Source: Cyanidioschyzon merolae (Eukaryota). Taken from it: 64,000 nucleotides of DNA. The stretch lies in assembly GCA_000091205.1 (NCBI GenBank), contig AP006485.2. One strand, 5' to 3'. Positions within the stretch are counted from its first letter, which is position 1. Every line of letters begins with the position of its first letter. A model generated the notes under the pieces. It had not been told where the DNA came from. It saw only the letters and a program-made list of their open reading frames with translations, and did not search any database. Of the stretch, positions 1 through 62,399 are shown in pieces. A program made the position numbers and the translations under genes.

Positions 1-1139
1 GTCGTTTGGAGGCGTCATGGTCTCTGTTTTGTCCGAATGCCGTCGACGTCGTTGGTCGGTCTCCTTTCGGTTCCGGGCTTGCCGCCGTGGAGCCATCGCT
101 CTCCTCTCACTGCAGTACCCTAGAGTCGCTCGCGCACTGTACAGAATACTTAACTCTTTGGTGGCTACTTCTCCAGGTCAGAACAAGAATAAAACACCTA
201 GGAAACAGTTGAAAGCGAAGTTCGGTTACGGAGTGCGGCACAAGTCTGGACGATGAACCTTCGTCCGAATGGTGGCGTTCCAAGCAGGAGCTTCGTTCAT
301 CGATGTATTGTTGTCAAGTGAACGTCTTGGTTTACGTACGAGAAGTATCTTATAGTGTAGTTTTGAGAAATTGAGGTGCTTGTCTGTAATTCGAGGGGCA
401 CTGAACGATCACAAGTTCACATACGCGACGGACGAGTGCGGTCAGGTACTGGAAACGAGTGCTTTTAGCGGGTAACGACGAGGGAGCAAGTTCCCGAACC
501 TGCTGCGACGCGTGCTGGTGTCCTTAATGCGCTCCCTAGACAAGGAACTATAGGAGGTCATGGGAAGACTTGCGATCCAAGTGGTACGAGCGTCAAGCGC
601 TTACTTACAGCCTCGTCACTTTTCTGCTACGCGACTCAAGGGGTAGTGGGGCTTTCTTCAAAGTCTCATCGTTCTCTACACGCTGCATCACAGGAAGCTG
701 TACCGGGTCGTGCGGTTATGGATCAAACCTAGGAAAGGTAACAGCTGAAAGCTAGAACAAACAGTAGCTCGTGAGGCAGTTATACACGAGCCGTGTTCCA
801 AGTAGCCTGCACGCGTGCGTCAGTGGACAAGGGATAAAACGGCTTGCGCAGCAACTCCAGCGAACTCGCTTGCTTCTCGCGATGTTCAAGAATCATTCAA
901 TCTCGAGCGTTCTGAAACATTCGAACACGTCTCCACTCATTGCGGTAGCAGAGGCGCTGCACCAGTCCACGTCGCTGGACACCGGTATCTTCCACCGTAT
1001 CTCATGCGCTTCCCTTTACCCATCGATGTGAGAAAAGCGCTCCACAATGCGTTAGGATTTCACGAAAAGCACCTAGCGCCACAGCATGTCGACTAATTTA
1101 CCTCCTCTTGTCGAGAATGTAGCTCATTTCGCAGATGTC

Positions 1140-44500: not shown

Positions 44501-47152
44501 AACCAGCGGCCTGCTGCGTACGCTCATCCGATGTCGCGTTTCAACATGTGAACGCGCTGGTGCCGTCAACGCTGTCGCATCGCCAGACCAACTGGTGTTG
44601 CGTATTGGATGCTGGTGCTCATAGGCGAGGCGCAACAGTGCTCCTGACGATGCGTCGGTGCTTGCGTCGACAAAGACTACTGGATAAAGGTCGTCGTGTA
44701 GGTGCTCACGCGCCTGCACAACAACATCACCCGTTTGTAGCGAGATGCACGTGCGATTGGGTGTCCTCTCCAAAAGCAGATGCAGATGTCGGAGTTGGAT
44801 GTCGGCGAAAGGCCTTCGATCTGAAAGCTGCAGGCTCATCTGGGTATCGTCGATCCGCAATTCGATGCGGAGACCTGCAGCATCTGGTTTCCACTGAATC
44901 TGCTGGAGCGTAGACTCCAAATCGGTGACTTGCTCATCCACGTGCTCCTGTACAAAGCCTTGAAAACGTTCACCGAGCTCCTGCGCCAAGCTAGCCGGCT
45001 CAACGACGATTTTGGATTCCTCGCGCTGCTCCGAGTCTAGCCGAGCAGAGCGCGCATCAGCCTGAGGCTGGTGCTCGGATGGTTGACACAAAGTGTCAGT
45101 AGTTGCGGGCCAAATCCGCTCCACTGCGGTGTGACGCTCTTCGCGAGCAGCAGGAGCAGCAGTCGACCTAGCAGTTGGCGTCGGTATTCCCGATGTGACG
45201 TCCACACCAGACGCTGAATCCTTTGTCGCAGGTGGCGCTGAGCTCCAGCCGAGTGTGGTGGAGATCCAGCCCAGCCAGCCGGTCGACGCTGTGGCCCCAG
45301 TTCGAGCTGTTTCTGCTGTCCCGCTGGCGTCTTCAGCGGAGCCAACGACTGCGGAAACAGCTCGACCTTGATCAACGATGCTGCGTTTGGTGTTCGCTCC
45401 TGGTGTATACTGAGGCCTTTCGGCGTTAGGCTGCAGTGGTGCTCGTCTGCTGGGGTCACGTTCAAGCGCCCTGTGGTATCGTTGTATTGCCAGACTCCGA
45501 AAGTAGCGGATTTCATCGATGCTTAACTGTTGCTCCAGAGCTGCGACTGCCTCTTCCAAGTCCGCTGGATCGTTGGCAAGAGAGAGTGCCAGAGCTTCCC
45601 GTGTACCAGTGGATGCTTGGGTGCGGTCATCAGTTTCCAGTTTCACTCGCGTGTAGAGCGATATGTAGCGTTCTTTGCGTCGATGCCAAGCACCAAGATC
45701 CTCGAGCACGAATGGACGATACAAACTGGATACAAATGCTCGAACACAAAGAAGCGCAAATTTCCAACGGTTTCGCGCCCTACTCGGGTGCTGCTGCTCT
45801 GTCGCCTCTAGGGCCTGGATATCGCGCGGAAGCTCTGCGGATTGCCGCTCCTCCGGAGGAGGCATCCAGTTCAGATATCGTGAGCGATAGCGATTCCCAA
45901 ACATCCACAGATAAGGTTCGGGGGCGTTCATGAGCACCAACAAGTCTGAGCGTCGTCGCCATCCCAACCAGGTTGCGTAGCTCTTCAGTGCCGTCACCGT
46001 CTCTACCTGAGACTGTTGCAGTTGCAAACACCAGCGTTCAACACCGAGACAGAGTGAGACTCTGGTGGTGCTGTCGCTCGTCGACTGGCCAGACGAATCG
46101 TGGGGCGCTTCTGTATCCGTCGCCAAGGTGCTTGGGTACGGTCGCTCTATTCGTAGTCCGACATACCCATAGCTGGGCCTGCACAAAAGAAAGGGTTCCA
46201 TGATCTTCGCGAAACGCTCATAGTGCTCCGACAAAGATTCTCCCGCTAAGGCTGTGAATGCGGCATCCGCTGGCGTCGACTGCGAGCGATGCTGGCTCCT
46301 CATTGGTGTCAGGTAGCAGGCCAGACCATGCACCCGTAACTGTCGATCGAGGATCAAGCGCATCCTGGGTGAGGTCGCGGCCTCATTCTGGGTAGGATGA
46401 TCCAGATGAGGTCGCCATTCATGACGATAATCGGGGTCTGTCGACTTATCAGAAGCAGCGGCATTGCTATCGATCAGGCTGAGTTGCCGGAGCATCAATC
46501 CGCAACTGCTCTTTCGTGTGCCTTGAGACCGCCTCCCTTCGAGCAGGTTTGTTTCCGGTTCGACAGCGATGAAGTCGACATGAATATGCACCCGTTCTAT
46601 CTGCAACTGTAGACGACGAAGCAGAAATGCAGTGGCTCTTCCAGCAAATGTCTGCAGCCAGCCGCCGTCTCGAGCGCCTCCTGTCGAGGCACCGTTGTGC
46701 TTGCTGGACGCAGGCAGCGTCTCTTGCGAGAGCTGCTGCTCTCGTGTCGCAAGTGTCCGAGCCCAAGACTCGAGACTCTGACGCTGCTCCTCGTCGTCTA
46801 GGCGGAGAAGTTCCGCTCGAGTGGTCTGAAACGAGTCAGCGTTGTTACTGGGGGCTTCACCCGGATACCAGCACAGCTCCAGGTACACGTCTGCGATGCT
46901 GATGCTGATGATTCCATTCCACCGCGCTTGGATGGATAGCGTGCCTAGGCCAGCCCGTTGGAGTTGAAGTTCTTTGATTCCGAGATCTTGACGCCAATAG
47001 CGCTCGACCGCACCGGTTTCGAGTTCGAGATCGTGAACCTCAAAGTAGCCCCGCTGCCCTAAAGCGATTAGGACTTGCTCCCGATCTAGTCCACCTCGAA
47101 TAAACGTACCGACCTTGCTCGCAAGAAATCGATACAGCGCTTCTTCGAGCAT
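36701..47152 (-). CDS. VPS13: VPS13/chorein-family bridge-like lipid transfer protein (3483 aa)
   Basis: N-terminal chorein-N motif 'MLEEALYRFLASKVGTFIRGGLDREQVLIALGQRGYFEVHDLELETGA...LGTLSIQARWNGIISISIADVYLEL' matches the VPS13/ATG2 N-terminus. Single uninterrupted 10.4-kb ORF. Low-complexity inserts include poly-Q, (GN)n, (DAA)n, (PV)n. The C-terminal region is consistent with VPS13 ATG-C/PH-like tails. Confidence 0.8.
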
Positions 47153-47199
47153 CGAATTGAGTTGGTGTCAAGCAAGTGATACGTTGCTCGACGAGTAAC

Positions 47200-47850
47200 A
47201 GAACCGGACGACGGCCACGCACCAAACGCCGTTCTGAAGCAAAACGTTGTCGCCGTCAGCGGTGGACAGTTGTGGCGAGAAACTCGCTATGGACAAGACG
47301 TCCCCAACTGACGTGCAGACGCCTCCCCGCCGGTTTGGACCGGCCACCCACAACTGATTCCAACTTTTTTTTTTAATATAGTTCCACTTTGAGCGGTTGT
47401 CCCTTAAAATTCTCTCTTGTCCACTCTGGAGGTCTTCTCTCCAGCACCGCACATCTCCTCATATTGATTGCTGCGTTCAGGTCTCGGTTCACGAACTCCA
47501 TACGTCCACTGCCTCTTGCTAAACTCATCATTGCGAGCAGTCCTGGCACTCGCGCCTTCTGTTCCACGACAGTCTTGTCACCTTCTTCTTCTGCTTGGTT
47601 CATTGCTGGTCTTCTCTCGATGGTCGACGAGAAGAGAAATTTTTCTATTTTCACCGGTACCTGGCAATGGCGGCCCTCCAGAATCCCAGACTTCCGTCTT
47701 CACACCTCTCCCTCGGTGTTTTTCCTCAAATAAACGCAATTCGACCACGTCTGCTATCAACTCGCGAGAGAGAATTTGACTACACGCACCTGGGGGTATC
47801 ACGCAATTGAGCTGAGAGATTATACCAAGCGAAAACACTCCGACACGATC
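47200..47850 (-). mobile_element. Fragment (copy C) of the Fanzor/TnpB-like element family: 3' end only, retains the RuvC-III motif
   Basis: ORF 47373..47654 (-) encodes '...MEFVNRDLNAAINMRRCAVLE...' (RuvC-III). Shares the invariant block 'ccaactgacgtgcagacgcctccccg' and 'ggaccggccacc' with copies A, B and D. About 80% identical to copy A over ~450-650 bp. Lies immediately upstream of the VPS13 start codon. Confidence 0.55.
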
Positions 47851-48222
47851 GATGCGCTATGACGTCAGATCATCCGCTGGAAACGACGACTACATATGAG
47901 CGCGCGCTGTACGACGAGTCTACCATCATCAACAGCGGTAATATTCAGATCACTTTGGCGGTGTATCTGTGCATTGTGGCAGCTTTACAGTCCAAGGCCG
48001 CGCGTGAAAGCGTCTCTTGTGATCCTCGATCTGAGGCAACGTATGCGTCATGTGCATGAATCGAGCGGCGATTTCCATTCAAGGCTACTCCAAACCCTAA
48101 TTCCAGCTTGCGATCATGAAAAGCCTCCGCAAAGTGTTCGCAAGCTCAAAGACTGTCGTTTCCGCTAAGATTCGGCTCGTGCACGGCTGAGTCGTCATCA
48201 TTCTGAATCGTATTTTCGGCGG

Positions 48223-49431
48223 CTACCGCTCACGCTCAACTGATTCCAGCATTTCCGACACATATCGCCACACCGTGTTCGGATCCTGGTCGTGCGGGCA
48301 ATGACCGACAGCTTTCAGAGCAACAAATCGATCCACATGTGGATTGCGTGCAAACAGCTCTCGTCCGAGGGCGAAAGGTTCCCACGGATCACGCTCTCCC
48401 CAGAGGACCCAGATTGCGGGCGGATCTTTTCGAGCAGTTGCAGCCATCTGTGCAATGCTTTCGACGAGCTCCTCTGCCAGCGGGCCGCGATCATACGACG
48501 TGAACGCTAGAAATACATCCAGAGCACCGGGGCGCCTGCTTGGGGCCCGAATCCGCTCTACGAGCTCGGTACTGATGATCTGGTCCGCCTCAGGGCCATC
48601 AACAGCGTAGGCTGAGCAGAGTAACCTGCGGAGCGTCGCTGGCCGAGATACCAGAGAGAAGAAAAACTTCGCCACGGGACGAAATCCCAATACGCGCAAC
48701 GCTAATGGAGTCGTCCAGACGCGCAGACCCCGTCGTTTCTTATAGTGCAGCTGGCGAAGAGACGGATTCAGACACATAACTGCCCGAATACGCGTGCCCT
48801 GCATACCAGGATGCTCTACTGACTGGCGCAGCATGTCGCAAGCAGCTTGAAGTGCGGCAACACAACCGATTGAATTTGCAACGAGAACAACATCACGCTG
48901 TTGCGAAATCCCGGTATCTGACGCGGTCACCACAACAGTATTGATGAAATGAAGGATCTGCTGTGCCCAGCTTTCAAACGTGTACGAAAATGTCGGAGAG
49001 CCAACTTTGCCGTCGCCTTGCGTCGTGAACAGCGGTGGTGGCATATCAGCATCACCAAAGCCCAGCAAATCCAGCGCATACGCGTCGTAGCCCGCCTCCG
49101 AAATGATGTTGAGCATCTTCTGCCAGTGAAATGCCCCAGCACCGAAACCGTGAATGCATATCACAGCAGGCCTTGCCGGTGACGCCGGCGGAGCTGCAGG
49201 TTTCGCCCAGTACGTACAACGGAATCTTTCAAACAAGTAATCTTCTTGCCGAAAACCTGGCGGCAACGGTAGGAGCGGTTGAACACTCCTTAAACATTCC
49301 TCGAAAACACCACCTACATTCGTAGTGGGGTCAGCGCTCAAAGTAGAGTCGAAGTCACGACGGCCCGTTGCTCTCAGAGCGCTGTTCACCGAGTGCCCGT
49401 TTCCTTCATTTACGTCAGCCTTAACACCCAT
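48223..49431 (-). CDS. Alpha/beta-hydrolase fold protein (~402 aa)
   Basis: 'VICIHGFGAGAFHWQKM' (HGxG oxyanion region), 'GHCPHDQDP' (His of the triad near the C-terminus) and 'LVANSIGC' (nucleophile elbow GxSxG-like). The six-frame ORF extends to 49851, but its first 140 codons lie in the repeat element, so the start is set at Met141 (codon 49429-49431). Confidence 0.65.
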   Translation of the reverse strand: MGVKADVNEGNGHSVNSALRATGRRDFDSTLSADPTTNVGGVFEECLRSVQPLLPLPPGFRQEDYLFERFRCTYWAKPAAPPASPARPAVICIHGFGAGAFHWQKMLNIISEAGYDAYALDLLGFGDADMPPPLFTTQGDGKVGSPTFSYTFESWAQQILHFINTVVVTASDTGISQQRDVVLVANSIGCVAALQAACDMLRQSVEHPGMQGTRIRAVMCLNPSLRQLHYKKRRGLRVWTTPLALRVLGFRPVAKFFFSLVSRPATLRRLLCSAYAVDGPEADQIISTELVERIRAPSRRPGALDVFLAFTSYDRGPLAEELVESIAQMAATARKDPPAIWVLWGERDPWEPFALGRELFARNPHVDRFVALKAVGHCPHDQDPNTVWRYVSEMLESVERER

Positions 49432-49555
49432 AACGGCTCCAGTGCCTCCAGGCCGAGGGAGCTGACGCCTTCTAGCACTCAAGAGCGAGCGTCGCGGCCG
49501 TTCGTTACTTTTCGAGTGAAGCAGCACCGGTGCCAGGCGACAATGACCGAAGCGC

Positions 49556-50167
49556 TCACCCGTACAAACCTCTGAAACGTACCCTGGGTGGACACTCGCA
49601 CCAACACAAAACATCTTTCCAAAGACAAACGTTGCCCCCGGCCGTGTACAGTAGTGGCGAACGCGCCCTAGGCAAGGGGTCTCCAACTGACGTGCAGACG
49701 CCTCCCCGTTTTTTTGGACCGGCCACCAACGTCTGCTTCCATTTTTTCTCATATAGATCGACTTTGAGAGGTTGTCCAATAAAATCCTCTTGTGTCCAGT
49801 CTGGAGGTCGTTTCTCCAGCACCGCACATCTCCGTATATTGATAGCGGCATGAAAATCTCGGTTCACGAACTCCATACATTTCGTGCCGTTGGGAGCTGT
49901 ACTCACCAATACGAGTAACCCTTGAACTTTCGCCTTCCTTTCCAGTTGCTCCTCCGCCAGCGGTCCGTACTTTTGCAATTTCCTCAGCGCTCTTCTGGCA
50001 CTTTTCCATCTCCACCCTCTGAAGCGTGCAGCCCAGTTCCTGGTATGTATAGGACGTCCGGAACTCATATACAGGTATCGTAACGAGACGCCGGGCGCAC
50101 TCCTTGTACAGCTTCGTCGCTGGAGCTGGCGTAGTTCCTTTTCTGTTCTTCCAGTGCCTTGCTCCAT
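49556..50167 (-). CDS. Fanzor/TnpB-like nuclease, C-terminal segment with RuvC-III (copy A)
   Basis: '...[26 protein letters not shown]...' matches the TnpB/Fanzor RuvC-III consensus (NRDxNAAxNI) preceded by a Zn-finger Cys. The last ~20 codons read into flanking DNA beyond the repeat boundary. Confidence 0.55.
   Translation of the reverse strand: MEQGTGRTEKELRQLQRRSCTRSAPGVSLRYLYMSSGRPIHTRNWAARFRGWRWKSARRALRKLQKYGPLAEEQLERKAKVQGLLVLVSTAPNGTKCMEFVNRDFHAAINIRRCAVLEKRPPDWTQEDFIGQPLKVDLYEKKWKQTLVAGPKKRGGVCTSVGDPLPRARSPLLYTAGGNVCLWKDVLCWCECPPRVRFRGLYG
49600..49760 (-). ncRNA. Candidate omega-RNA (scaffold/guide) region at the 3' end of the copy A Fanzor-like ORF
   Basis: A nucleotide-invariant 26-mer across all four copies plus conserved 'ggaccggccacc' and 'aaacgttg' blocks, located where TnpB/Fanzor omega-RNAs map. 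Assigned by inference only. Confidence 0.15.
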
Positions 50168-50837
50168 ACGCTTCTACGAGCTTCTGACGGTCATCCTCCT
50201 TGAGGGCGCTCAACTGATTGAAACAATTCGCAAACGCCCGCTGCTTCACACCGTATAGATTCATTCGCAGACGAGCCCACCGGGGCTTTCTATACTCCTC
50301 CCACAGCGCATCCCAATGGGCAACACGAAATTCCATGAATTTCCGAAAAGCTTCACAGACCGCTCCGCGGCTCGTCGCCTCGCTCAAAGCTTCCAGGTGA
50401 TGCTTTATTCCTGCATTCCACGTAACGATTATCATCCTTGCATTCACTACAACGGATTCTCGATAGTATCTCGCTCTCGAGAACCTCAGCAGACGCATGT
50501 CTTTCTGGCGTAAATTACCGTCCATGCCATCTTCCGCACGCTTCGGTGCTGCGATGGTGATGATATTCGTGTTCCCAGGATCCGCGCCAACCACAATGTC
50601 TTTATCCTGCACTTCCTGTGTGGCAGGATCCGCCTCTTTCTTTCCTTGATGCTTCGTCGCGTCAACCATAAAGTCGTTATCCTGCACATTCTGTTCGGCA
50701 GGATCCGCCTCCTTCTGACCTTCATCCTTCACCGCGCCAACGACACGGTCGTTATCCTGCACTTTCTGCATCACAGGTTCCGCCTCTTTCTCTTTTTCAT
50801 CCTTCACCGCGTCAGCGACAAAGTCGTCATCCTGCAC
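49749..50837 (-). CDS. Fanzor/TnpB-like nuclease, central segment with RuvC-I and RuvC-II (copy A)
   Basis: '[18 protein letters not shown]' (RuvC-I, GxDPG) and '[22 protein letters not shown]' (RuvC-II Glu plus the first Zn-finger Cys). Frame shifts relative to the RuvC-III segment between ~50000 and ~49900. Confidence 0.55.
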
Positions 50838-50872
50838 CTCCTGTGTCGCAGGATCCGCTTCTTTGATTTTTT
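50575..50872. repeat. 75-bp tandem repeat (x ~4) inside the Fanzor-like ORF, copy A
   Basis: Encodes 25-aa units '[25 protein letters not shown] / [25 protein letters not shown] / [25 protein letters not shown] / [24 protein letters not shown]'. The last unit is the RuvC-I strand. Confidence 0.6.
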
Positions 50873-51182
50873 AATGCTTCGCAGAGGGCGAAGCGAAAGG
50901 CACAATCGGACGGTCCACTTTCAAGCGCCGATAGTGTACATACAAGGTTACTCCATCGGTCTCGATCAACGCAGTGAATACCTTTTGGCTTCTCACTTTG
51001 AGCCGTTTGAAATTGAAGATGTTCTTCAAGTACGTCGCCCGGTTTTCACCGGTGAAGTCATCCCTGCTAACAGTGAACACTGGACTGATCTCCTTCATGA
51101 TGCCGTAAAACACGTCCGAATCGATATTCACGAAACGTGACTTGATGCTGCACATTGGAACCACGTTGAAGCGCTTACCCAT
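50871..51182 (-). CDS. Fanzor-like nuclease, upstream segment '[21 protein letters not shown]...' (copy A)
   Basis: Identical to the copy B segment 57672..57983. Separated from the RuvC-I segment by a single in-frame TAA. Reading through in frame gives '[17 protein letters not shown]', a further unit of the internal repeat. Confidence 0.4.
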
Positions 51183-51203
51183 TAGGAAAGCCTTCCGTCT
51201 CTC

Positions 51204-51941
51204 CTACTCTTCATTTGTCTTTTCGCTCAGGTTCATCTCCGCTTCGCGTTCGAGCTCCGGGTCCAAGAACACAGAATACCGTACGACGATGCGATAGTAT
51301 CTCCCCTGATCCTTTTTCAACTCTGATATCTTTTCTGTTGGATTCACCAGCCCCAAGATTGCACGGCGCTCTTGTATAGCCGCACGGATCACAGATGCTT
51401 CATTCGTGCTCCTGCGTGACGTCTTCTTGTCGACAAATTCGACCTCATCTTCATGCTTGCGATCTTTCGTTATGCCATTGATAGTCGCCTATATTCATTT
51501 GAGAGAGCTGCCTGGGTAGAGTGCAAAAACGGCGCGTATCATGAAACGTTCGAGTTTCACGATCACGTGACTCTCCAGTTTCGTGATGTACTTCGTCGCC
51601 CCTTATATGTAAACATTCGAATCACCCCTGTATGGAGTACTGTTGAAGCTGTAGAGGGGATGTTTTTCGTAAAGGCCATGCACTAGCACATTTTCCCTCC
51701 GCGTTTCCGCTGTTCCAAGCATCAGGTATCGAATAAAGGTCTCGTCGAATAACTCGTCCAGAATCTCGACCGTTTCCATGTTCGCGACGTCTTCGTACAT
51801 CTCCCTCGCCAAATGCATCAGTCTTGACGACGCCTTGAAAATACTCTTGGAGTACGAATCGAAACGTTTTTCGATAGCGTCTCGCAACTTTTCCCTGTAC
51901 GGATCCTTGATGTGTCCAAGAAGAAAGATTTTCACCTCCAT
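51204..51941 (-). pseudogene. Disrupted N-terminal region of the copy A Fanzor-like gene
   Basis: Homologous to the continuous 252-aa ORF of copy B (57983..58741) but split into 51603..51941 and 51204..51392 by a 1-nt deletion and an in-frame TAG (tgg->tag) 7 codons upstream of the MGKRF Met. Confidence 0.4.
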
Positions 51942-52151
51942 CTCATTCTACAGTCATCTTTCCCGCCGCCTTCGACGTAGGGCCTCTCGCTTTCAGTTCT
52001 TCTTCTCTCCTGTTTCTTCTGGACTCGGCACTGCTTTTTGTTTGTCTCTAGCGGCCGGCGACCCCGGCCCTCCAGGAGCGTCGACTTGCTTTTTCATAGC
52101 TTTCCGTTTTTTAGTTTTTTCTTGAAAAACAACGCTCTGTGAACCCTTCTG

Positions 52152-52158
52152 TTATATA
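52152..52158 (-). promoter_or_regulatory. TATA-like box (TATATAA on minus strand) ~210 nt upstream of the copy A nuclease ATG
   Basis: 'gaacccttctgttatatactgcg' is conserved in copy B ('gaacccttctattatatactgcg') at the same distance. Confidence 0.2.
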
Positions 52159-52813
52159 CTGCGAAAAACACTTGACTAGACTTGTTTGAAGTTTCAAACA
52201 GAAACGAACTTAAAGCCTGTACTTGGCTACGACCTGAACGGAAATACAACTTTTTACAGATGAACAACACGCTACTGATCCCAATCGCGTTTCCCTTCAA
52301 CGAAGGCATACGCATCGTGTCAGTTGATTCCCCGATCTCCCAGATGCGATTACCGAGCGCGATGCGTGCGCCTCGCGAGACACCACGCCGATCGATGAAG
52401 GACACGTGCCTCAAGCCCATAGTGCAAAGAAACAGAGCTCGCTCGGGGGCACGCCTGCGCTATCGCTTTTGGCGCGAAACGCGAAATCGAAACCGCGCCT
52501 GCAGGGATCGTCTCGAACCGTTTCTCCTTCGCCGTGATCATCGATTGCCGCGGATTCGAGGCATGGTGCGGGGGAATTTGAATCGCTCGTGGGCTCTGTC
52601 GTTGCCGCTGCTGGACGTAAATATTTTTTTAGAGTTGGTGTTGTTCAACGGACGGCTGGGAACGGGCTCTTTCTCGTTCACGACACTAAATATTTTCCAT
52701 CAAAAGAAGTTTTATACAAAGGTTTCCAAAGTATAATATCAGGATTTGCTACGCTCATGGTATTTTTGGAGAGCAATATACGTAGAGGCCGCCCAGGAGG
52801 TCAAGGCTTTCGG

Positions 52814-53006
52814 ATGAAGCCTTCGCTATTTATTATTTGTTTCATACTTTGCAGTGTGTTCGCGTCTCTCGTACGGGCAGCGACTGTGACACCTACACCG
52901 ACTGCGACTGCGACACCGACTGCGACACCGACACCTACACCTACACCTACACCGACACCTCCATCGGCTACGACACCGACACCGACACCGACACCTCCAT
53001 CGGCTA

Positions 53007-53043
<37 letters not shown>

Positions 53044-53066
53044 TCCATCGGCTACGACTACGACTA

Positions 53067-53097
<31 letters not shown>

Positions 53098-55207
53098 TCC
53101 ATCGGCTACGACTACGACTACGACACCGACTGCGACACCGACTGCGACACCGACTGCGACACCGACTGCGACACCGACTGCGACACCGACTGCGACACCG
53201 ACTGCGACACCGACACCTACACCGACTGCGACACCGACTGCGACACCGACTGCGACACCGACTGCGACACCGACTGCGACACCGACTGCGACACCGACTG
53301 CGACACCGACTGCGACACCGACTGCGACACCGACTGCGACACCGACACCGACACCGACTGCGACACCGACTGCGACTGCGACTGCGACTGCGACTGCGAC
53401 TGCGACGGCGACTTCTACGGCAACTCCGACACCGATTGCGACGATGACTCCGACAATTACATCATCGCCAACGATTACTGTAACAGCGTCTCCAACGACA
53501 GTGACGATGACACCGACGATGACTCCAACTGCAACAACGTCACCAACAATCGTGCCGACGACGATTGCCACCTCGATTGCGATATCCGTTCAGAATCTTT
53601 CTCTTTGTTTGGCCGTGGCGACGGATTTGCAGAACGATCTCGAGGCTCGCTTCACGGGCCTGGTAGTGAATGTCAGCGTGACTGATAACTGCGACACGGT
53701 CTTCGGTTCGGGCACATCAAGGCGCCTCGCCACCACATTAGACAAGAGCAATCCTCGTCTGGAACGAGCATTGGTGCGCACGTCGGGCGGCAGTGTTGTG
53801 ACCTATGTGATTAAGATCTCAGGAGACACATCCCTCGCCAGTGATGCGCAAAGTGTGCTTCAAACTTTCACCGACCAGCTTTCTACAATTCTACCCTCTG
53901 GTGCGACACTTGCTATTATAACCCCGACACCGAGTGCAACGCCAACACCAGTTTGCACGAGTGAAATCTGCGGTTCTCCGGGCCAGTACACAAACCGGGA
54001 CGCTTGCGAGCAAGTCGGGTGCTGCTTTAACTCCCAGACGAACGCGTGCACCCTGAAGAGCGTCTCAGCGGCCTGCAGCGCTGTTCCAGTGACGCAGCGC
54101 GTCCCCTGCGGCTGGAGCTACATCTACCCCGACGAGTGCACTGCGATACCGGGATGCTGCTGGCAGCCAACGGCGAACGGCATCCTGGCACCCTGGTGCT
54201 ACTACGACATCAACCATGCACCGCAGGCCTCTGTAGCGCTGCAGGAGGTGCAGGCACCGGTTCCCCTCTGCCCGTCACCGGGAGCGCAGCGCCAGCCGTG
54301 CGGCAACGCGGGCATCAACCAGTTTACGTGCTATGCCCAGGGCTGCTGCTACGACTCGCAGGCGCAGAACCAGTGGGTGCAGAACGGCAAGCAGCAGAGC
54401 GACTTTGCGTCGAACCCGTACTGCTTCCAGCCCGAGAAGACGTGCGCGGTGGGCGAGTTTGAGCGCCAGCCGTGCACGAACGCGGTGAATCAGAACCAGC
54501 AGCTGAACAATAACATCAACAACAACCAGTTTGTGCGTCTGCTGAACACGCTTCTGTACGGAGAGCAGCACGGGACGCAGCGCACGAGCTACTCGCCGCA
54601 GCAGTGTCTGGAGGCTGGTTGCTGCCTGGGGCTCAGCAACGAGTGCTTCCAGCCGATGACCGAGTACGTGTGCCAGACCTACGGGTATGTGTCGAACTCG
54701 CTGAGCGGCACGACCGGCAACGTATCGAACTCGAGCTATATTCCGTGTGGCCCGGAGTGCTGCAACGCCGAGACGCAGAACTGCACGTACAACCCGTTCA
54801 GCAACAACAACAACCAGCAGCAGCAGCAGCAGCAGCAATTGCAACAACTGCAGCAACAACAGGTGCTGCTGCCGTCATTCTGTGTGTGCAAGGACCCTAC
54901 GAAGCAGTGCGGGACGTACCTGATCCCTTCGGATAACCTTGTGAACAAGGTGCGTTGCTGCCGCGCTGACGAGGAGTGCATCAACAACCAATGTGTGGTG
55001 ATTAGTCCAACACCGACTCCGAGTCCCGTGGCTGTGACAGCGACACCCTCTGCGACGGTGTCTGCAACAGTCTCTGCGACAGCTTCTGCGACGGTGTCTG
55101 CGAGTGCATCAACGAGTGCATCAGCGAGTGCTTCAGTTTCAGCCTCTGTGTCGACGTCTGCGAGCGCCTCGGAATCAGCGACATCTTCAGCTCCACCGAC
55201 TGCGTGA
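52814..55207 (+). CDS. Secreted mucin-like Thr/Pro-rich protein with 3-4 trefoil (P-type)-like cysteine domains
   Basis: Signal peptide '[23 protein letters not shown]'. Contains ~180 aa of (PTPTAT)n. Cys modules are '[21 protein letters not shown]', '[22 protein letters not shown]...APWCYYD' and '[22 protein letters not shown]...NPYCF', all matching the trefoil pattern RxxCGxxG..C...GCC[FWY]D..PWC[FY]. Also has a poly-Q/N tract and a Ser/Ala/Thr-rich C-terminal tail. Start taken as Met76 of the 872-aa ORF. Confidence 0.75.
52884..53440. repeat. 12-bp coding minisatellite (accgactgcgac)n encoding (PTAT/PTPT)n
   Basis: Read directly. It creates long shadow ORFs in other frames and on the opposite strand. 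Confidence 0.85.
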
Positions 55208-56355
55208 GCGAACGTTTCAACTGTTAATTTGCCCACAGTCTAGATCACGTCTATGCTGATCCTCTGTTGCGACAATATTCCACTCATGTTCACAAGACCC
55301 GAGAGTACGAATGAACGAATGCGTTAATGTGGATATTTGTGCGCGGAGTGTCATCTGAGGTCCTCTTCGGGAACTTACATTCAGAGATCTGATGAACGGA
55401 AAGAATGGACCAGAATTTGCTTTTGGAACGTAAAGGAATGATTACCTATGCCTATGAGCTTGCCCCCGATGATAGCCTTGGTGGTAATGGCGGTATCTTG
55501 GTACCCTTTCTTCTCTTTGTAGTCGGAATACGGTTTCCGAGTTGCATGTAGCGAGTATGTCTGCAGTAGAGCGTCTGGAACTGTTTTTTTAGTTTCGTTG
55601 TACTTGAGCACATTCTAGTCCTGAGGAGAGGTTCTGGAGCAAGTTTGACTCGATCCGTACAACCGCAAATTTCACCAAAATACGATTCCTCTTGAGGAAA
55701 AGCTGGTATTCGTGACGCCTGCATACGGGCTCCGGCTCCGCTTGGCACGAATGGAAGCAGGGCCGCCAGCCTCACAGCGCACTTATAGCTCTAACATTGA
55801 AAGTGCTTATAGCTTGTTCTGTCGGTCGAGGCATCCTCTCGATATATTCACCACTGTTGCCTACCGTTGCTCGTAGGCTACGTCCATAAAACCGTCTGAA
55901 GTGTTGTGCTGATTTCCGGATTATGTTTATGTCTTGTACACTAGAAAAAAACGAGAACGAAGTGGTGGTAAGCCGTGAAGACGTAGATGCGCAGTTACCG
56001 TTACTCGGTCCAGAGGCACATCATGCCAGGCAGTCACATCCTGAGACGAGCTGTACGCTATGTAAGCATTACCACAGCACCTTGAGCACAGCTGGAGGCA
56101 TTCTAGAAGCGGCCAGTATCGATTCTAAACAATTGATCTTGTTCTATATCATTGCAAACAAATTGGTAAACGGATCCGTTGCTAATAAATGGACACAGGG
56201 CCCTCGGAAGATAGATAAACGACAAGGCAGCGGATGATGTATCGAATACAGAAGAACTCGAGTTGCCCATTTTCCACATTTTCTGTCACATCAGTCCTGT
56301 TACAGCCATGGCAGCAATATCTTCACGAAAAGCATCAACTATTACCACATATACT

Positions 56356-56967
56356 CTAGGTACTCTTCGCAAATACGTTCTGAATAAGCGACGTGACGCG
56401 CCCGCACCGAACGCCTCTCAAAAGACAAACGTTGCCCCCGGCCGTGTACAGTAGTGGCGAACGCGCCCTAGGCAAGGGGTCTCCAACTGACGTGCAGACG
56501 CCTCCCCGTTTTTTTGGACCGGCCACCAACGTCTGCTTCCATTTTTTCTCATATAGTTCAACTTTGAGAGGTTGTCCAACAAAATCCTCTTGTGTCCAGT
56601 CTGGAGGTCGTTTCTCCAGCACCGCACATCTCCGTATATTGATAGCGGCATGAAAATCTCGGTTCACGAACTCCATACATTTCGTGCCGTTGGGAGCTGT
56701 ACTCACCAATACGAGTAACCCTTGAACTTTCGCCTTCCTTTCCAGTTGCTCCTCCGCCAGCGGTCCGTACTTTTGCAATTTCCTCAGCGCTCTTCTGGCA
56801 CTTTTCCATCTCCACCCTCTGAAGCGTGCAGCCCAGTTCCTGGTATGTATAGGACGTCCGGAACTCATACACAGGTATCGTAACGAGACGCCGGGCGCAC
56901 TCCTTGTGCAGCTTCGTCGCTGGAGCTGGCGTAGTTCCTTTTCTGTTCTTCCAGCGCCCTGCTCCAT
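56356..56967 (-). CDS. Fanzor/TnpB-like nuclease, C-terminal segment with RuvC-III (copy B)
   Basis: '...[20 protein letters not shown]...'. About 98% identical to the copy A segment. The C-terminal tail diverges where the ORF reads into flanking DNA. Confidence 0.5.
   Translation of the reverse strand: MEQGAGRTEKELRQLQRRSCTRSAPGVSLRYLCMSSGRPIHTRNWAARFRGWRWKSARRALRKLQKYGPLAEEQLERKAKVQGLLVLVSTAPNGTKCMEFVNRDFHAAINIRRCAVLEKRPPDWTQEDFVGQPLKVELYEKKWKQTLVAGPKKRGGVCTSVGDPLPRARSPLLYTAGGNVCLLRGVRCGRVTSLIQNVFAKST
56400..56560 (-). ncRNA. Candidate omega-RNA region at the 3' end of the copy B Fanzor-like ORF
   Basis: Same invariant blocks as copy A, but the adjacent distal segment differs ('gcaccgaacgcctctc' vs 'gcaccaacacaaaacatctttcc'). 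Confidence 0.15.
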
Positions 56968-57136
56968 ACGCTTCTACGAGCTTCTGACGGTCATCCTCCT
57001 TGAGGGCGCTCAACTGATTGAAACAATTCGCAAACGCCCGCTGCTTCACACCGTATAGATTCATTCGCAGACGAGCCCACCGGGGCTTTCTATACTCCTC
57101 CCACAGCGCATCCCAATGGGCAACACGAAATTCCAT
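56558..57136 (-). CDS. Fanzor/TnpB-like nuclease segment with RuvC-II / Zn-finger start (copy B)
   Basis: '...[32 protein letters not shown]...'. Separated from the RuvC-I segment by a private frameshift. Confidence 0.5.
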   Translation of the reverse strand: MEFRVAHWDALWEEYRKPRWARLRMNLYGVKQRAFANCFNQLSALKEDDRQKLVEAYGAGRWKNRKGTTPAPATKLHKECARRLVTIPVYEFRTSYTYQELGCTLQRVEMEKCQKSAEEIAKVRTAGGGATGKEGESSRVTRIGEYSSQRHEMYGVREPRFSCRYQYTEMCGAGETTSRLDTRGFCWTTSQS

Positions 57137-57152
57137 GAATTTCCGAAAAGCT

Positions 57153-57638
57153 TCATAAGACCGCTCCGCGGCTCGTCGCCTCGCTCAAAGCTTCCAGGTG
57201 ATGCTTTATTCCTGCATTCCACGTAACGATTATCATCCTTGCATTCACTACAACGGATTCTCGATAGTATCTCGCTCTCGAGAACCTCAGCAGACGCATG
57301 TCTTTCTGGCGTAAATTACCGTCCATGCCATCTTCCGCACGCTTCGGTGCTGCGATGGTGATGATATTCGTGTTCCCAGGATCCGCGCCAACCACAATGT
57401 CTTTATCCTGCACTTCCTGTGTGGCAGGATCCGCCTCTTTCTTTCCTTGATGCTTCGTCGCGTCAACCATAAAGTCGTTATCCTGCACATTCTGTTCGGC
57501 AGGATCCGCCTCCTTCTGACCTTCATCCTTCACCGCGCCAACGACACGGTCGTTATCCTGCACTTTCTGCATCACAGGTTCCGCCTCTTTCTCTTTTTCA
57601 TCCTTCACCGCGTCAGCGACAAAGTCGTCATCCTGCAC
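57153..57638 (-). CDS. Fanzor/TnpB-like nuclease segment with RuvC-I and the 75-bp repeats (copy B)
   Basis: '...[18 protein letters not shown]...' identical to copy A. Truncated at 'RGAVL*' by the private 1-nt insertion. Confidence 0.5.
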
Positions 57639-57671
57639 CTCCTGTGTCGCAGGATCCGCTTCTTTGATTTT

Positions 57672-57983
57672 TTAATGCTTCGCAGAGGGCGAAGCGAAAG
57701 GCACAATCGGACGGTCCACTTTCAAGCGCCGATAGTGTACATACAAGGTTACTCCATCGGTCTCGATCAACGCAGTGAATACCTTTTGGCTTCTCACTTT
57801 GAGCCGTTTGAAATTGAAGATGTTCTTCAAGTACGTCGCCCGGTTTTCACCGGTGAAGTCATCCCTGCTAACAGTGAACACTGGACTGATCTCCTTCATG
57901 ATGCCGTAAAACACGTCCGAATCGATATTCACGAAACGTGACTTGATGCTGCACATTGGAACCACGTTGAAGCGCTTACCCAT
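57672..57983 (-). CDS. Fanzor-like nuclease upstream segment 'MGKRF...' (copy B)
   Basis: 100% identical in amino-acid sequence to 50871..51182. Confidence 0.4.
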
Positions 57984-58741
57984 TAGGACAGCCTTCCGTC
58001 TCTCCCAATCTTCTTTTTTTCTTCACTCAGCTTCATCTCCGCATTTCGCTCGAGTTCTCGGTCGAGAAACATGAAATAGCGCAGAATAAGACGATAGTAT
58101 CTTTCCTTATCTTTTTTCAACTCTGATGTCTTGTCTGTTGGATTCGCCGGCCCCAAGATTGCACGGTGCTCTTGTATAACCGAATGGATTACAGAAGTAT
58201 CATTCGTGCTGTCGTTAAACGCCTTCGTGTCGACGAATTCGACTTCACCTTCATGCTTGCGATCGTTCTTGATGCCGTTGATAATCTCCCATATTCCTTT
58301 GCGAGAGATACCCGGGTACAGCGCAAACACGGCGCGTATCATGAAACGTTCGAGTTTCATTGTCAAATGGTTCGTCAGGTTCGTGAGGTTCTTCATCTCC
58401 CCATAGTCGTAAATACTCCGGTCCCCCTTGTATCGAGTACCCTCGAAGCCGTAAAAGGGATGTTTTTCGTGGAGGGCATGAACCCGCTCGTTTTCCTCCC
58501 GCGCTTCCACTGTTCCAAGCATCAGGTATCGAATAAAGGTCTCGTCGAATAACTCGTCCAGAATCTCGACCGTTTCCATGTACGTCACGTTTTCGTACAT
58601 CTCCCTCGCCAAATGCATCAGTCTTGACGACGCCTTGAAAATACCCATGGAGTACGAATCGAAACGTTTTTCGATAGCGTCTCGCAACTTTTCCCTGTAA
58701 GGATGCTTGATATGTTTAAGAAGACAGGCTTTCACCATCAT
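57983..58741 (-). CDS. Fanzor-like nuclease N-terminal domain (copy B), 252 aa continuous
   Basis: 'MMVKACLLKHIKHPYREKLRDAIEKRFDSY...'. About 80% identical to the split copy A region. Ends at a TAA overlapping the MGKRF ATG ('cTAATGg'), caused by a 1-nt loss in a poly-A run. Confidence 0.5.
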   Translation of the reverse strand: MMVKACLLKHIKHPYREKLRDAIEKRFDSYSMGIFKASSRLMHLAREMYENVTYMETVEILDELFDETFIRYLMLGTVEAREENERVHALHEKHPFYGFEGTRYKGDRSIYDYGEMKNLTNLTNHLTMKLERFMIRAVFALYPGISRKGIWEIINGIKNDRKHEGEVEFVDTKAFNDSTNDTSVIHSVIQEHRAILGPANPTDKTSELKKDKERYYRLILRYFMFLDRELERNAEMKLSEEKKKIGRDGRLS

Positions 58742-58951
58742 CTCGTCGTACAGTCGTCTTTCTTGCCGCCTTCGACCTAGGGCCTCCCCCGTCGGTCCTT
58801 CTTCTCTCCTGTTTCTTCTGGACTAGGCACTGTTTTTTGTTTTTATTTCTGGCAGCAGGCGACCCTGGACCTACGGAATCGTCGACTTGCTTTTTCATAG
58901 CTTTTCTTTTCATTTTTTTTGTGTGAAAAAGAACGCTCCTTGAACCCTTCT

Positions 58952-58958
58952 ATTATAT
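58952..58958 (-). promoter_or_regulatory. TATA-like box upstream of the copy B nuclease ATG
   Basis: Conserved with copy A at the same spacing (~211 nt). Confidence 0.2.
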
Positions 58959-60209
58959 ACTGCGAGAAATCAATTGAATATGTTTACTTGAGGGTTGAGA
59001 CACAATCGAACTGGAAACTATGATTTGTTACGACTTCCACGCAAATACAGCTTGCCCGTTAGAACATCAAGAAAACGTGTCGTCACGGTCGCGTTTCTCT
59101 TCAAAGGCGACAGATGCGTCGTGTCTCGTAAGTGCCATACTTGGAGATGCACGTATCAAGCGCGCCATACAGGAAAAAGGACAGTGACCTACGATTTACA
59201 AGAAACGATATAAAATTTTTTCCCGCTCTACGATAAGCGTTTAAGGGGAAACAGATCGCCGTATTATCGGAAGCTTATGTTCGAGGCGGTAGGTCCCGCG
59301 AGCCGGTCGAGTCTACCGGGCTAGAGCTCGGTATCCCTCTTAAGTGGCTGCTGCCGCTGCTGCTGCTGCTGCTGCAAGACCTGCGCAGCTCGTTCACAAC
59401 GCATTTTATCCTGAGACTATGCACAGGATGCTGCGTTGGGCCTCGCCCTGGTCGCAGTGGAACCCTAGTATAGCGCTTCGCGCTGCCGTAGGTAGTGGGT
59501 CTGTCTGCCCATTTTGCATGTTTCCAGAATGACAAATAGCCCTGATTCCGTTTCAGGTGAATCATCCTCCCAGAGGACGCCCTTATTGGTATGGCAAAGC
59601 CGTTCTGTCTCTGTACAGCACCTGCTTGAGCGGTATAAGCGCAACAGCGGGTGCTCACAACAGGCTCGGCGCTCGATAGAACATACGAAACGACCAGTGT
59701 ATCAGAGAGGAAGTATGGGTAATGGGACTTGAGGACAGGTGCACTATGACAGTGATATCCCCGGAAGCCATTATCCGTTCCGAATTCTGGGATCCATGGG
59801 CAATGTAAACGTTTTTTCATCAAAAAGAAAAAACGCCCCGAGGCGGACTCGTCATCGAGACGCACATCCCTCTGGATCGAATCTCCGGAAGGCGCTTCTG
59901 GGCGATCGCAAAAGCCCTCAAGTGCATCTTTGTATTCTCAACGGATAGCATGCTTTATTCGGAGCGCTCAGTCTCGAGCGTTCCCTCTAACTTTAAGCAA
60001 TAGCTTCGTAGATCAGACAGCTGTGTTGTCAAAGAGCACTGTACCTAGTTTTGGCGAGGTCTATAGTGCTGGAGAACAAAACGATCACGGGTTTGTAGCG
60101 ATCTCGGCACCAGTGCTAGAAACAACCCTGCACTGGAGCTCGTGCGATCTAAAACCTGTAGTCGGACTTTTTAGAAGATCTGTCTGGCAAGGAAACAAAT
60201 CGTGGAACT

Positions 60210-61286
60210 GTGCTCTTTGGAATGACGTCGGGGATCGACGAGGCAGCGGCTGAGCTTCAGGGAAGTCTCTTTGGGGAGGTCTCGCCTGCGATCGACTCGC
60301 CGGGTGCGGCGCTTGCACGTTCGTACCCCGTCCGCATCACCGTTGTCGGAGCTGGTGACGTTGGCGTTGCTTGCGCCTATAATATTTTGACCCGAGATAT
60401 TTGTAGTGAGCTGGTACTGGTGGACGTTCTCAAGGACAAACTCAAAGGTCAAGTTATGGACTTGCAGCATGGAGGTGCGTTCTACAGCACCCGCATCCGG
60501 GCTGCCGAGTCCTACGAGGATACAGCACATTCGGCAGTATGTATTATAACGGCAGGTGTGCGTCAGCGGCCCGGAGAAAGTCGTCTTGAGCTCATGGATC
60601 GCAATGCCGCATTGTTCAAAGGCATTATTCCGCCCCTGGTGCAGTATTCGCCGAACACAATCCTGTTGATTGTGAGTAACCCCGTTGATCTATTGACACA
60701 TCTAGCGTGGCAGATGAGTGGCTTGCCTCGCGAACGTGTGATTGGCTCAGGGACATATTTGGACTCTTCGCGTTTCCGCACACTTCTGGCGCAGCGGCTG
60801 GGCATCGATACCGCTTCCGTCCAGGCCATGGTACTGGGCGAGCACGGAGACTCCTCGTTCGTGTACCGGAGTGGTATTACGGTTGGTGGCGTGCCGTTGC
60901 GAACATGCTTCGAGCGCATGACCGACGCTGCGAGCGCGTCCACAGCATTCTATGATCTGGTGAAAGGTGTCCATCAGCAAGTTGTAGCCGCGGCTTACGA
61001 GGTCATTAAGCTGAAAGGCTACACCAACTGGGCCATTGGCAGCGCTGTTGGAAGTATCGTTACAACGATTGTGCATGATCGGCGCAAAGTGCTGCCAATA
61101 ACGACGCATGCGGGCTCGATGCGAGGCCTCGAGTCGGCGGATGTATTCTTGTCGTTGCCTTGTGTGCTAGGTCGGAATGGTGTCGTTGAAGTACTACAAA
61201 TACTGCCGTTCATGGAAAGTGACGAGAAAGAAGACCTCCAATCCAGTATAGAGGCACTCCAGAGCACGCCGAAGAAAGCATCTTGA
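60210..61286 (+). CDS. L-lactate/malate dehydrogenase family protein (LDH-like, Rossmann NAD-binding)
   Basis: 'ITVVGAGDVGVACAYNIL' (GxGxxG), the 'ITAGVRQRPGESRLELMDRN' substrate loop, 'LLIVSNPVDLLT' and the catalytic His region 'VLGEHGDSSF'. About 358 aa with an N-terminal extension. Confidence 0.8.
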   Translation: MLFGMTSGIDEAAAELQGSLFGEVSPAIDSPGAALARSYPVRITVVGAGDVGVACAYNILTRDICSELVLVDVLKDKLKGQVMDLQHGGAFYSTRIRAAESYEDTAHSAVCIITAGVRQRPGESRLELMDRNAALFKGIIPPLVQYSPNTILLIVSNPVDLLTHLAWQMSGLPRERVIGSGTYLDSSRFRTLLAQRLGIDTASVQAMVLGEHGDSSFVYRSGITVGGVPLRTCFERMTDAASASTAFYDLVKGVHQQVVAAAYEVIKLKGYTNWAIGSAVGSIVTTIVHDRRKVLPITTHAGSMRGLESADVFLSLPCVLGRNGVVEVLQILPFMESDEKEDLQSSIEALQSTPKKAS

Positions 61287-62399
61287 GCATGTTGCCTGCG
61301 CATGGTAACGCGTTGGATGCGGATCGTTTACAGGGACGTTAATCAAATGCCTCGTCGAAGTGCGGGCTCTGCACAAGCGTGCTCGGTCTGTACTCAAAAT
61401 AAGCGGATGGACAAGGAGGACTGAACTATGCTGGATACCTATGCCAAACTGGTAGGTCTTGGCACCGTAGAAAAGGTGTGGAGGGGAGCGTCCGTAGCCA
61501 TCTCGGCGAGCTTGTTTCAAATGGACAGCATTGCTGAAGGACCAGGTGGCACCAGAATTGCAGCTGCAGAGTAGCGTTCGCCTACTATCATCATTGAAAC
61601 CTGCTAGTCGTGTCATGGATACCGGACGTGCTGGAGTTCGCATCCGCAACAGCGAACAAGGATCAAATCAACTGACTCAAAATTCTCCAAAGCGATGCGT
61701 GGATGAAAGCTGGCGAAAGTTGCGGGTCTGGTACGGCATAACGTACGCTTACCCGGATGCCGATATGTATCGCGCCTGACCCGAGATACCCTGGTTCAGG
61801 TCAACCATTCTAAACCGCAGGATAAAAGTATGCCATGATTTAACGTTCACTGATGTTGGCTGGACGGCATCGCAACGCTCCACGAACCTGGGCGCGGCGC
61901 CGAAGGCTTAGTTTCCGAGTATGACCGTGACAGACTTTGCTCTATGCGTACGGATCTGGAAAACACGAGTCGAAAGTGTGCATCAGCACGCATGGGCGAC
62001 GAATAAAACCCTTAAAGCGACGTGCGAACAGTGACCTAACGATGCAAGTGGAACGAACCGAATACCCTGAGGTAGGTATGATGGCACAGCTTCTGCCTTG
62101 AGAGCAGCTGCACAAGCGCTTCAGTGCGGTAAAGCCGAAATCGTGCCGAAACGTCCGAGTCGCGTCAGCGCTTCTAGTGAACAGGAATGTGCCTCCAGCT
62201 TCTCTGACGTTCCTCTCGCGTCCCAGCAATTCTGGTACAAAGTTTCGCTCTATGCAGCACAGGCGCTGATGCAGCGCTCCTTCGGAAGCCCTGCCTTCCG
62301 CAAACTTGCACCGAGACGTTCCGTACGCAGCTATCGTGGTTATGCTTCAAAACCGGAACGGTATTGCAGTGTCTTGGAAGCGTCGGCTAGAGCTTCTGA

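Follow-up and report, generated by a model that had tools for sequence, protein, structure and literature searches.

Fanzor1 nucleases are under development as compact eukaryotic genome editors. Intragenic coding minisatellites (VNTRs), for example those of yeast cell-wall adhesin genes, consist of head-to-tail units that are joined in frame and are associated with slippage or unequal recombination. VNTRs of the yeast adhesin type occur mostly in surface proteins, their length gives a phenotype, and alleles and paralogues differ in length.

The transposon family CMe-1A has already been described. In the main-text passages devoted to it by Bao & Jurka (2013, Mob DNA 4:12, PMC3627910), the family is represented by approximately 150 copies in Cyanidioschyzon merolae, each approximately 80% identical to a consensus of approximately 3 kb; the elements are without terminal inverted repeats, and some copies are stated to be intact. 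An insertion within the nuclease core of a Fanzor1 protein is also on record: according to the passages on PpFz1 in a 2024 paper (PMC11423790), FRI is a folded domain within RuvC that binds cyclophilin. The array of 75-bp units described below adds a new detail to this known family, since the main-text passages of Bao & Jurka (2013; PMC3627910) retrieved by search term do not mention the repeat, and a search by term of the Fanzor papers returned no description of such a repeat.

Identity of the gene

The DNA analysed, referred to as the window, is a stretch of 64,000 nucleotides from C. merolae contig AP006485.2 (assembly GCA_000091205.1). A TnpB/Fanzor-like protein, whose reading frame is interrupted by stops and a frameshift, is encoded on its minus strand between approximately positions 52100 and 49600. 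No match was found for the window ORFs in an exact-sequence look-up, and Pfam assigned no significant family to the nuclease when window ORFs and close relatives were searched; a faint match to Cas12f1-like_TNB was located at RuvC-III (E 0.15-0.23). An exhaustive HMMER search yielded 2535 relatives, and the results of a second homologue search were dominated by fragments of the CMe-1A family. A profile built from 70 diverse relatives matched the Fanzor1 proteins PpFz1 (9cf0, E=1e-22), SpuFz1 (8gkh, 4e-16) and GtFz1 (9cer, 2.9e-12), while a shallow profile of close relatives alone matched no Fanzor in the PDB sequence search.

A relative with four units, P0001, which was 67% identical to the window protein, was modelled with AlphaFold (pLDDT 80.4, pTM 0.76; a single model from 37 sequences, whereas the use of 20 close relatives only gave an unusable result with a pLDDT of 37). 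The seven best Foldseek matches of this model in the PDB were all Fanzor1 (E 1e-13 to 4e-15, target-normalised TM 0.49-0.70), and the next were Cas12 proteins. Thus, the P0001 model displayed the WED-REC-RuvC-TNB arrangement of the Fanzor1/TnpB fold.

The published 3169-bp CMe-1A consensus DNA and the CMe-1 protein of 734 aa (supplements of PMC3627910) were used as the reference. The window copies were 76-87% identical to the consensus along the element, in agreement with the approximately 80% expected of the family, and the conceptual protein of copy 1 shared 71-77% amino-acid identity with the published protein. Judging by these comparisons, the gene is a Fanzor1 of the CMe-1A transposon family of C. 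merolae. The first-pass annotation of this DNA had spoken of a nuclease gene, and both the profile matches and Foldseek agree with this by placing it in the TnpB superfamily as Fanzor1. The codons for the catalytic Asp (RuvC-I), Glu (RuvC-II) and Asp (RuvC-III) are all encoded in copy 1, RuvC-III being out of frame. Upon inspection of the sequences, the paired zinc-finger cysteines of the TNB (CxxC…CxxC) between RuvC-II and RuvC-III were found to be absent in the CMe-1 clade. The cysteines are missing family-wide, as in the window at 49870..50060 and in P0001-P0036, where the region reads LLALVSTT..KRMEFVNRD.

Structure of the 75-bp array

The nuclease gene contains four head-to-tail, in-frame units of 75 bp, which are joined without spacers or introns (Table 1). 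Tandem Repeats Finder reported a period of 75 bp with 3.8 copies, 78% matches and a score of 320 at 50582..50864, and it also called the 150-bp harmonic. In a self-comparison of the array region, the identity at a lag of 75 was 0.778, whereas the best lag did not exceed 0.438 in any of 2000 shuffles; the signal was limited to approximately 50525..50900. The pairwise identity of the four units of copy 1 was 73-80%, corresponding to 15-20 differences per 75 bases in each pair. The register of the array was set by the CMe-1A family consensus, which has one unit at positions 2121-2195 with the catalytic Asp codon directly after it. The sole large difference between copy 1 and the consensus was an insertion of 225 nt at the unit, i.e., three extra units. 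The length of the unit is a multiple of three, and the units are spacerless and in frame, as in a coding minisatellite.

Table 1. Positions of the CMe-1A copies and of the features of copy 1 in the window
Feature	Position	Strand	Basis
CMe-1A copy 1, 5'-truncated pseudogene	49615..52361	-	consensus 648-3166, 81-86% identity
CMe-1A copy 2, full-length pseudogene	56412..59821	-	consensus 2-3169, 81-87% identity
CMe-1A copy 3, runs off the window	62446..64000	-	consensus 1610-3166, 76% identity
CMe-1A solo 3' fragment	47227..47566	-	consensus 2833-3169, 80% identity
Conserved beta-hairpin before the linker, taken as WED by analogy to the solved Fanzor1 structures	50919..50960	-	
Array of four in-frame 75-bp (25-aa) units, WED-to-RuvC-I linker	50583..50882	-	TRF, translation, lag test, 225-nt insertion relative to consensus
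Unit 1, 24 residues and a stop	50808..50882	-	translation in gene frame
TAA nonsense codon in unit 1	50871..50873	-	GAA (Glu) in published consensus
Unit 2, 25 residues	50733..50807	-	translation in gene frame
Unit 3, 25 residues	50658..50732	-	translation in gene frame
Unit 4, 25 residues; sole unit adjoining the catalytic DPGNTN	50583..50657	-	translation in gene frame
RuvC-I catalytic Asp codon GAT	50580..50582	-	aligned with DPG of PpFz1 and DPN of SpuFz1
RuvC-II motif YEFRTS, Glu codon 50064..50066	50052..50069	-	
+1 insertion, frameshift at EEIAK/YGPL	49975	-	consensus alignment
RuvC-III motif (Asp codon 49856..49858), frame differs from that of the remaining gene	49835..49864	-	

Each unit is made up of two parts, the acidic linker that follows the WED hairpin and, after it, the hydrophobic half of strand beta1 of RuvC (FVVGA). 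The unit ends with an Ala codon, one codon short of the catalytic Asp, and the array is directly followed by GAT CCT GGG AAC (DPGN; GADPGN occupies 50571..50588). The RuvC-I Asp codon therefore lies directly 3' of the last unit and is no part of the repeat, and since the duplicated segment ends before it, the upstream units never held the catalytic Asp. The unit both starts and ends with GCG, which provides a microhomology of 3 nt at the duplication junction. A longer word, the 10-nt GCGGATCCTG present in both 'EADPA' and 'GADPG', was considered as the site of duplication and was rejected because its two sites are 48 nt apart within the unit and not 75. Exon duplication and mutually exclusive exons were also rejected, as the units abut directly.

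The observation that the first-pass annotation had drawn from the letters alone was confirmed. It had placed four tandem 75-bp copies at 50575..50872, which is correct to approximately 10 bases, and the peptides that it quoted are correct as well. It had held that a self-alignment without 75-bp periodicity would speak against the repeat, and the self-comparison gave a strong signal at exactly this period. The duplication that it saw is in frame and does take in the first RuvC strand (FVVGA), and the last unit is indeed the only one that adjoins the catalytic DPG.

Repeat-bearing ORFs are also present in another frame at 50486..50725 (-) and on the opposite strand at 50646..51140 (+); one example of what they encode is the basic peptide RRRILP.R.CRI.TLWL, which is repeated. 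These ORFs are by-products of the periodicity and no evidence of genes.

CMe-1A copies in the window and their state

Three copies of CMe-1A and one 3' fragment, all on the minus strand, were found within 17 kb (47227..64000) with host genes between them. None of the three copies has an intact ORF; they are pseudogenes, and the gene is dead in the window. Copy 1 contains eight in-frame stops (51995, 51956, 51950, 51605, 51497, 51491, 51206 and 50873), and where the protein alignment covers them, the consensus has sense codons for Tyr, Gly, Trp, Ser and Glu. In addition, the +1 insertion puts RuvC-III of this copy out of frame, and a compensating -1 deletion is located at 49742. Copy 2 carries the unit 1 TAA of copy 1 together with six frameshifting indels; a stop at this position is absent from the other arrays listed. 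Copy 3 contains 14 stops in the aligned region and a single unit at approximately 63419..63493, and it reads GLSPWS instead of GADPGN, with Ser instead of the first catalytic Asp.

An alternative genetic code or programmed readthrough of the stops was rejected, because neighbouring ORFs run uninterrupted for up to 3483 codons in the standard code and because sense codons stand opposite the stops in the consensus. Introns behind the stops or the frameshift were rejected as well: relatives have an open frame at these positions, and each lesion amounts to a one-base change from the consensus.

Copies 1 and 2 have identical arrays, that of copy 2 being at 57384..57683. The two copies, which are 7 kb apart, are approximately 100% identical over approximately 1.5 kb (~49700..51230 and ~56500..58030), a tract that takes in the array, the TAA and the +1/-1 indels, whereas they are only 75-80% identical further 5'. 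This difference indicates a recent gene conversion between neighbouring pseudogenes, so that the arrays and shared lesions of copies 1 and 2 stem from a single event.

The clustering of CMe-1A copies could reflect a local insertion hotspot or repeated homing. The host genes among them are an alpha/beta hydrolase (48223..), a PT-rich ORF (52589..55207) and a malate/lactate dehydrogenase (60210..61286). The first of these lies in a 542-codon ORF at 48223..49851 (-) that is in part artefactual: the 3' end of the Fanzor, in another frame, supplies its first ~100 codons, and the Abhydrolase_6 domain begins only at residue 230. The ORF at 52589..55207 (+) has 872 codons with very long Thr/Pro/Ala dipeptide-like repeats, followed by cysteine-rich modules and poly-Gln, and its product looks like a mucin-like secreted or cell-surface protein; antisense and shifted frames of this region give spurious long ORFs. 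Outside the CMe-1A copies, the window encodes the plastid-import protein Tic22, Pex16, RCC1, PDI and MDH. It is intron-poor, and the part sampled for base composition has a G+C content of ~50-60%. These features are in keeping with C. merolae or a close relative.

At the 3' end of the element (~49615..49680, and likewise at 56412.., 62446.. and 47227..), a conserved GC-rich hairpin is followed by a T-run. In the consensus, the hairpin reads GCCGCCA-N14-TGGCGGC and stands just before the point where similarity among the copies stops. It may be part of an omegaRNA scaffold or a terminator; an Rfam scan of 47-64 kb gave no match, this hairpin included.

Variation of the unit number

The first-pass annotation had proposed that the repeat number be compared among paralogues. 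For this comparison, 80 loci from one scan of JGI metagenome contigs (231 relatives) were analysed together with the window copies, and the unit number was read from the distance between the anchors HYRRLKKDRP and DPGNTN. In almost all copies, this distance was 99+75(n-1) nt with n = 1..6. The window and the 80 metagenome loci together contained 61 distinct arrays, five of which were frameshifted. The distinct in-frame arrays had one unit in 7 cases, two units in 14, three in 14, four in 12, five in 7 and six in 2. The window copies had 4 (copy 1), 4 (copy 2) and 1 (copy 3) units, and among the database proteins found in the first pass, 9 of 36 had one unit only. The same family with the same 75-nt increment was present in contigs of at least eight independent metagenome data sets.

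The unit number also differed between alleles. Contigs L020 and L021 represent one locus in two samples and are 99.1-99.4% identical over 10 kb, flanks included, but the former has 5 units and the latter 3, so that their arrays differ by exactly 150 bp. Such a difference at 99% identity shows a recent gain or loss of units. Thus, the number of units varied both among paralogues and between alleles of one locus, as it does in VNTRs. The nearest relative of a unit was found in the same array for only 11 of 145 units and in another locus for the remaining 134, which indicates that the arrays were mostly inherited as the elements multiplied, with occasional local duplication. Distant homologues with a single copy read EDDFVIACDPG and DDTVVFGNDPG; 'DD-hhV' is therefore ancestral strand sequence that was later duplicated, and the sequences indicate that a single unit is the ancestral state.

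Among the 80 metagenome loci, none was completely intact and no fully intact multi-unit gene was found. The nearest to one was L004 (Ga0080006_1134363, 4001..6510), which starts with ATG, has five units and extends through all RuvC motifs (three) to the end of the C-terminus; its lesion is one stop (…ASN*FTNEAS…). Loci L001 and L003, with 4 units, are open from an internal Met to just beyond RuvC-III. Nonsense codons were present inside several metagenome arrays, namely those of L002 (2185-2189, compared with L003), L026-L028, L029/L030, L035, L040 and L076. Between L002/L006 and L001/L003, which are ~99.6% identical, there is an allelic CAG/TAG difference in the array.

Constraint on the units and their predicted disorder

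The ratio pN/pS was calculated crudely, as Nei-Gojobori proportions of pooled pairs, for units that are not strictly orthologous and derive from few ancestral unit types; it was 0.93 for the last unit and 0.94 for the first unit between loci, 0.94 for units within arrays, and 1.02 for interior units of copies with at least three units. By the same calculation, it was 0.29 for the 165 nt immediately downstream of the array and 0.34 for the 300 nt downstream in all copies (0.31 in copies with at least three units). In multi-unit lineages, the RuvC core thus evolved under purifying selection, while the units appear to drift near neutrality, and there is no sign in these near-neutral units that linker length is under selection.

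The variation of the units was dominated by few alternative residues per site. Gly was retained at position 24 of the last unit in 51 of 56 arrays. In interior units, Asp occupied position 24 in 69 of 116 cases, and Val replaced Ala at position 25 in 38 of 116. These substitutions at strand positions indicate that the interior pseudo-strands are relaxed, and to this extent the description of the upstream units as decayed was apt. Positions Q14, V16, V23, K7 and P11 and the D-N-D triad were highly conserved, and the acidic character was retained. This conservation could reflect constraint rather than recency or homogenisation, which counts against neutrality.

In the AlphaFold model of P0001, residues 380-470 (units 1-3 and the first half of unit 4) had a pLDDT of 26-40 and no secondary structure, while the hairpin at 350-370 and the strand at 479-484 (FIVGAD) were confident and ordered. 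In 68 diverse relatives, the catalytic Asp lay at a distance of 22-54 residues (median 29.5) from the conserved His of the hairpin, and therefore the array is located in a linker that is naturally variable in length. In CMe-1, this distance is 41 residues with one unit and 116 with four, so the effect on linker length that had been suggested at the outset is real: the repeats lengthen the connection of the WED hairpin to the RuvC core.

Interpretation of the array

The feature is best explained as a coding minisatellite in the CMe-1A Fanzor1, tolerated and near-neutral in a disordered linker, with the window copies dead; this reading is given a probability of roughly 0.8. The 75-bp segment from the acidic linker to the Ala codon before the RuvC-I Asp would have undergone tandem duplication, with replication slippage or unequal recombination as the probable mechanism, and the array would then have grown and shrunk in steps of 75 bp. 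Because a unit of 75 bp keeps the frame and the breakpoint precedes the Asp codon, an added unit leaves an intact strand downstream; each unit would thus place 25 acidic residues upstream of an intact strand segment of 11 residues. The real strand could still enter the RuvC sheet, and the extra units are predicted by the model to form a disordered surface loop of up to ~125 additional residues. The array would be tolerated because the breakpoint keeps an intact beta1-DPG strand after the last unit, and since the units are near-neutral while the RuvC core evolved under purifying selection, the loop seems to be tolerated and not used. Copies 1 and 2 share one 4-unit array through the recent gene-conversion tract, and copy 3 has kept the ancestral single unit.

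Accordingly, the interpretation offered by the first-pass annotation can be kept with respect to the strand duplication, the linker length and the variation among paralogues, where unit numbers of 1 to 6 were found. It had to be corrected on three points. The RuvC-I strand and its gene were called functional, but the frame of copy 1 is interrupted by eight stops, among them the TAA in unit 1, and by a +1 frameshift before RuvC-III. The duplication is not one of a catalytic motif, because the Asp is outside the unit. Finally, the segment is not exon-like, as the units are contiguous without introns in an intron-poor genome.

Could the array have a function of its own? The units might form a module, either an acidic pseudo-beta1 (DNDFVV(D/G)A) that acts as a decoy or nucleic-acid mimic or a multivalent docking site for a host factor, with the copy number tuning the nuclease; a decoy would compete with the real strand or the omegaRNA/DNA-binding cleft (autoinhibition). 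A conserved motif core in all 172 units, the passage of arrays between diverged copies (134 of 145 units being nearest to another locus) and the purifying selection on RuvC in copies with at least three units (pN/pS 0.31) are in accord with such a role, for which there is also a precedent, as the FRI domain of PpFz1 binds cyclophilin according to the passages available (PMC11423790). However, pN/pS of the units is close to 1, AlphaFold predicts neither structure nor docking for them (pLDDT 26-40), their number is free to vary from 1 to 6 even between 99%-identical alleles, and nonsense codons occur inside arrays. Moreover, the published consensus and 9 of 36 first-pass database proteins manage with a single unit. 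A functional module, whether as a decoy or as a docking site, is thus considered improbable.

Still less credit is given to a role of the array as DNA or RNA, for instance as a recombination hotspot, a protein-binding array or a part of the guide RNA, with an incidental coding frame. It is true that pS in the units (~0.19-0.22) is below that of the flanking RuvC (~0.29-0.34), which hints at homogenisation or constraint at the nucleotide level, and that the gene-conversion tract of copies 1 and 2 spans the array; but unequal exchange among units already predicts a lower pS, and the array does not lie at the centre of the tract, which measures 1.5 kb. Furthermore, Fanzor omegaRNAs are reported to be located at the 3' end of the element (PMC10432273), ~1 kb from the array, and no Rfam family matched within 47000..64000. 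The idea that the periodicity is an artefact of assembly or chance is refuted: the window contains the array in two places, at least eight independent metagenome data sets have contigs of this family with the same 75-nt increment, and the shuffle control was far exceeded. Therefore, the tolerated coding minisatellite remains the preferred reading.

Whether multi-unit proteins work as nucleases bears on the use of this finding. As no fully intact multi-unit gene was present among the 80 loci, tolerance of the array in an active enzyme is what we infer rather than observe. It seems unlikely, on balance, that multi-unit CMe-1 Fanzor1 proteins are or once were active and tolerate 25-125 residues before RuvC-I, in which case the site would be insertion-permissive or the acidic loop would be a tunable throttle. 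In CMe-1A, the WED/RuvC-I junction has naturally received an insertion that expanded repeatedly and reaches up to ~125 residues, and if multi-unit proteins were active, this junction would be a candidate site for domain insertion. Otherwise, the feature is an ordinary slippage product in a decaying transposon family. For annotation, the lesson is that the published CMe-1 consensus collapses a length-polymorphic region into one unit and that the window copies should be annotated as pseudogenes and not as nuclease genes.

Comparison with known systems

The solved Fanzor1 structures (SpuFz1, 8GKH and 9CEU-9CEZ; PpFz1, 9CF0-3; GtFz1, 9CER-T) have the same fold and domain order as CMe-1. In all of them, as in CMe-1, the TDG-hairpin is followed by a linker, the hhhhDPG strand of RuvC-I, EFRTS of RuvC-II and RD.NAA.N of RuvC-III, although sequence identity to the CMe-1 clade is only 12-16%. 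The linker of the solved proteins comprises ~40-50 non-repetitive residues at this place, whereas that of CMe-1 carries repeat units. The TNB zinc-finger cysteines are kept in SpuFz1 and PpFz1 but not in the CMe-1 clade.

The FRI of PpFz1, as far as the passages on it go, resembles the array in being a lineage-specific insertion of ~100 residues in or next to the RuvC of a Fanzor1. It differs in that the CMe-1 array stands upstream of RuvC-I, consists of tandem repeats of variable copy number and has a prediction of disorder. With VNTRs, the array shares the arrangement of the units; its host, however, is a nuclease carried by a transposon, and nothing points to a phenotype. With respect to CMe-1A itself, the published passages give the family ~150 copies with ~80% identity and a length of ~3 kb, in agreement with what is seen in the window, but the family as described there has some intact copies, whereas the three window copies are not intact. 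A further difference concerns the number of units, which is 1 in the published CMe-1A consensus and protein, 4 in copies 1 and 2 of the window and from 1 to 6 in the relatives.
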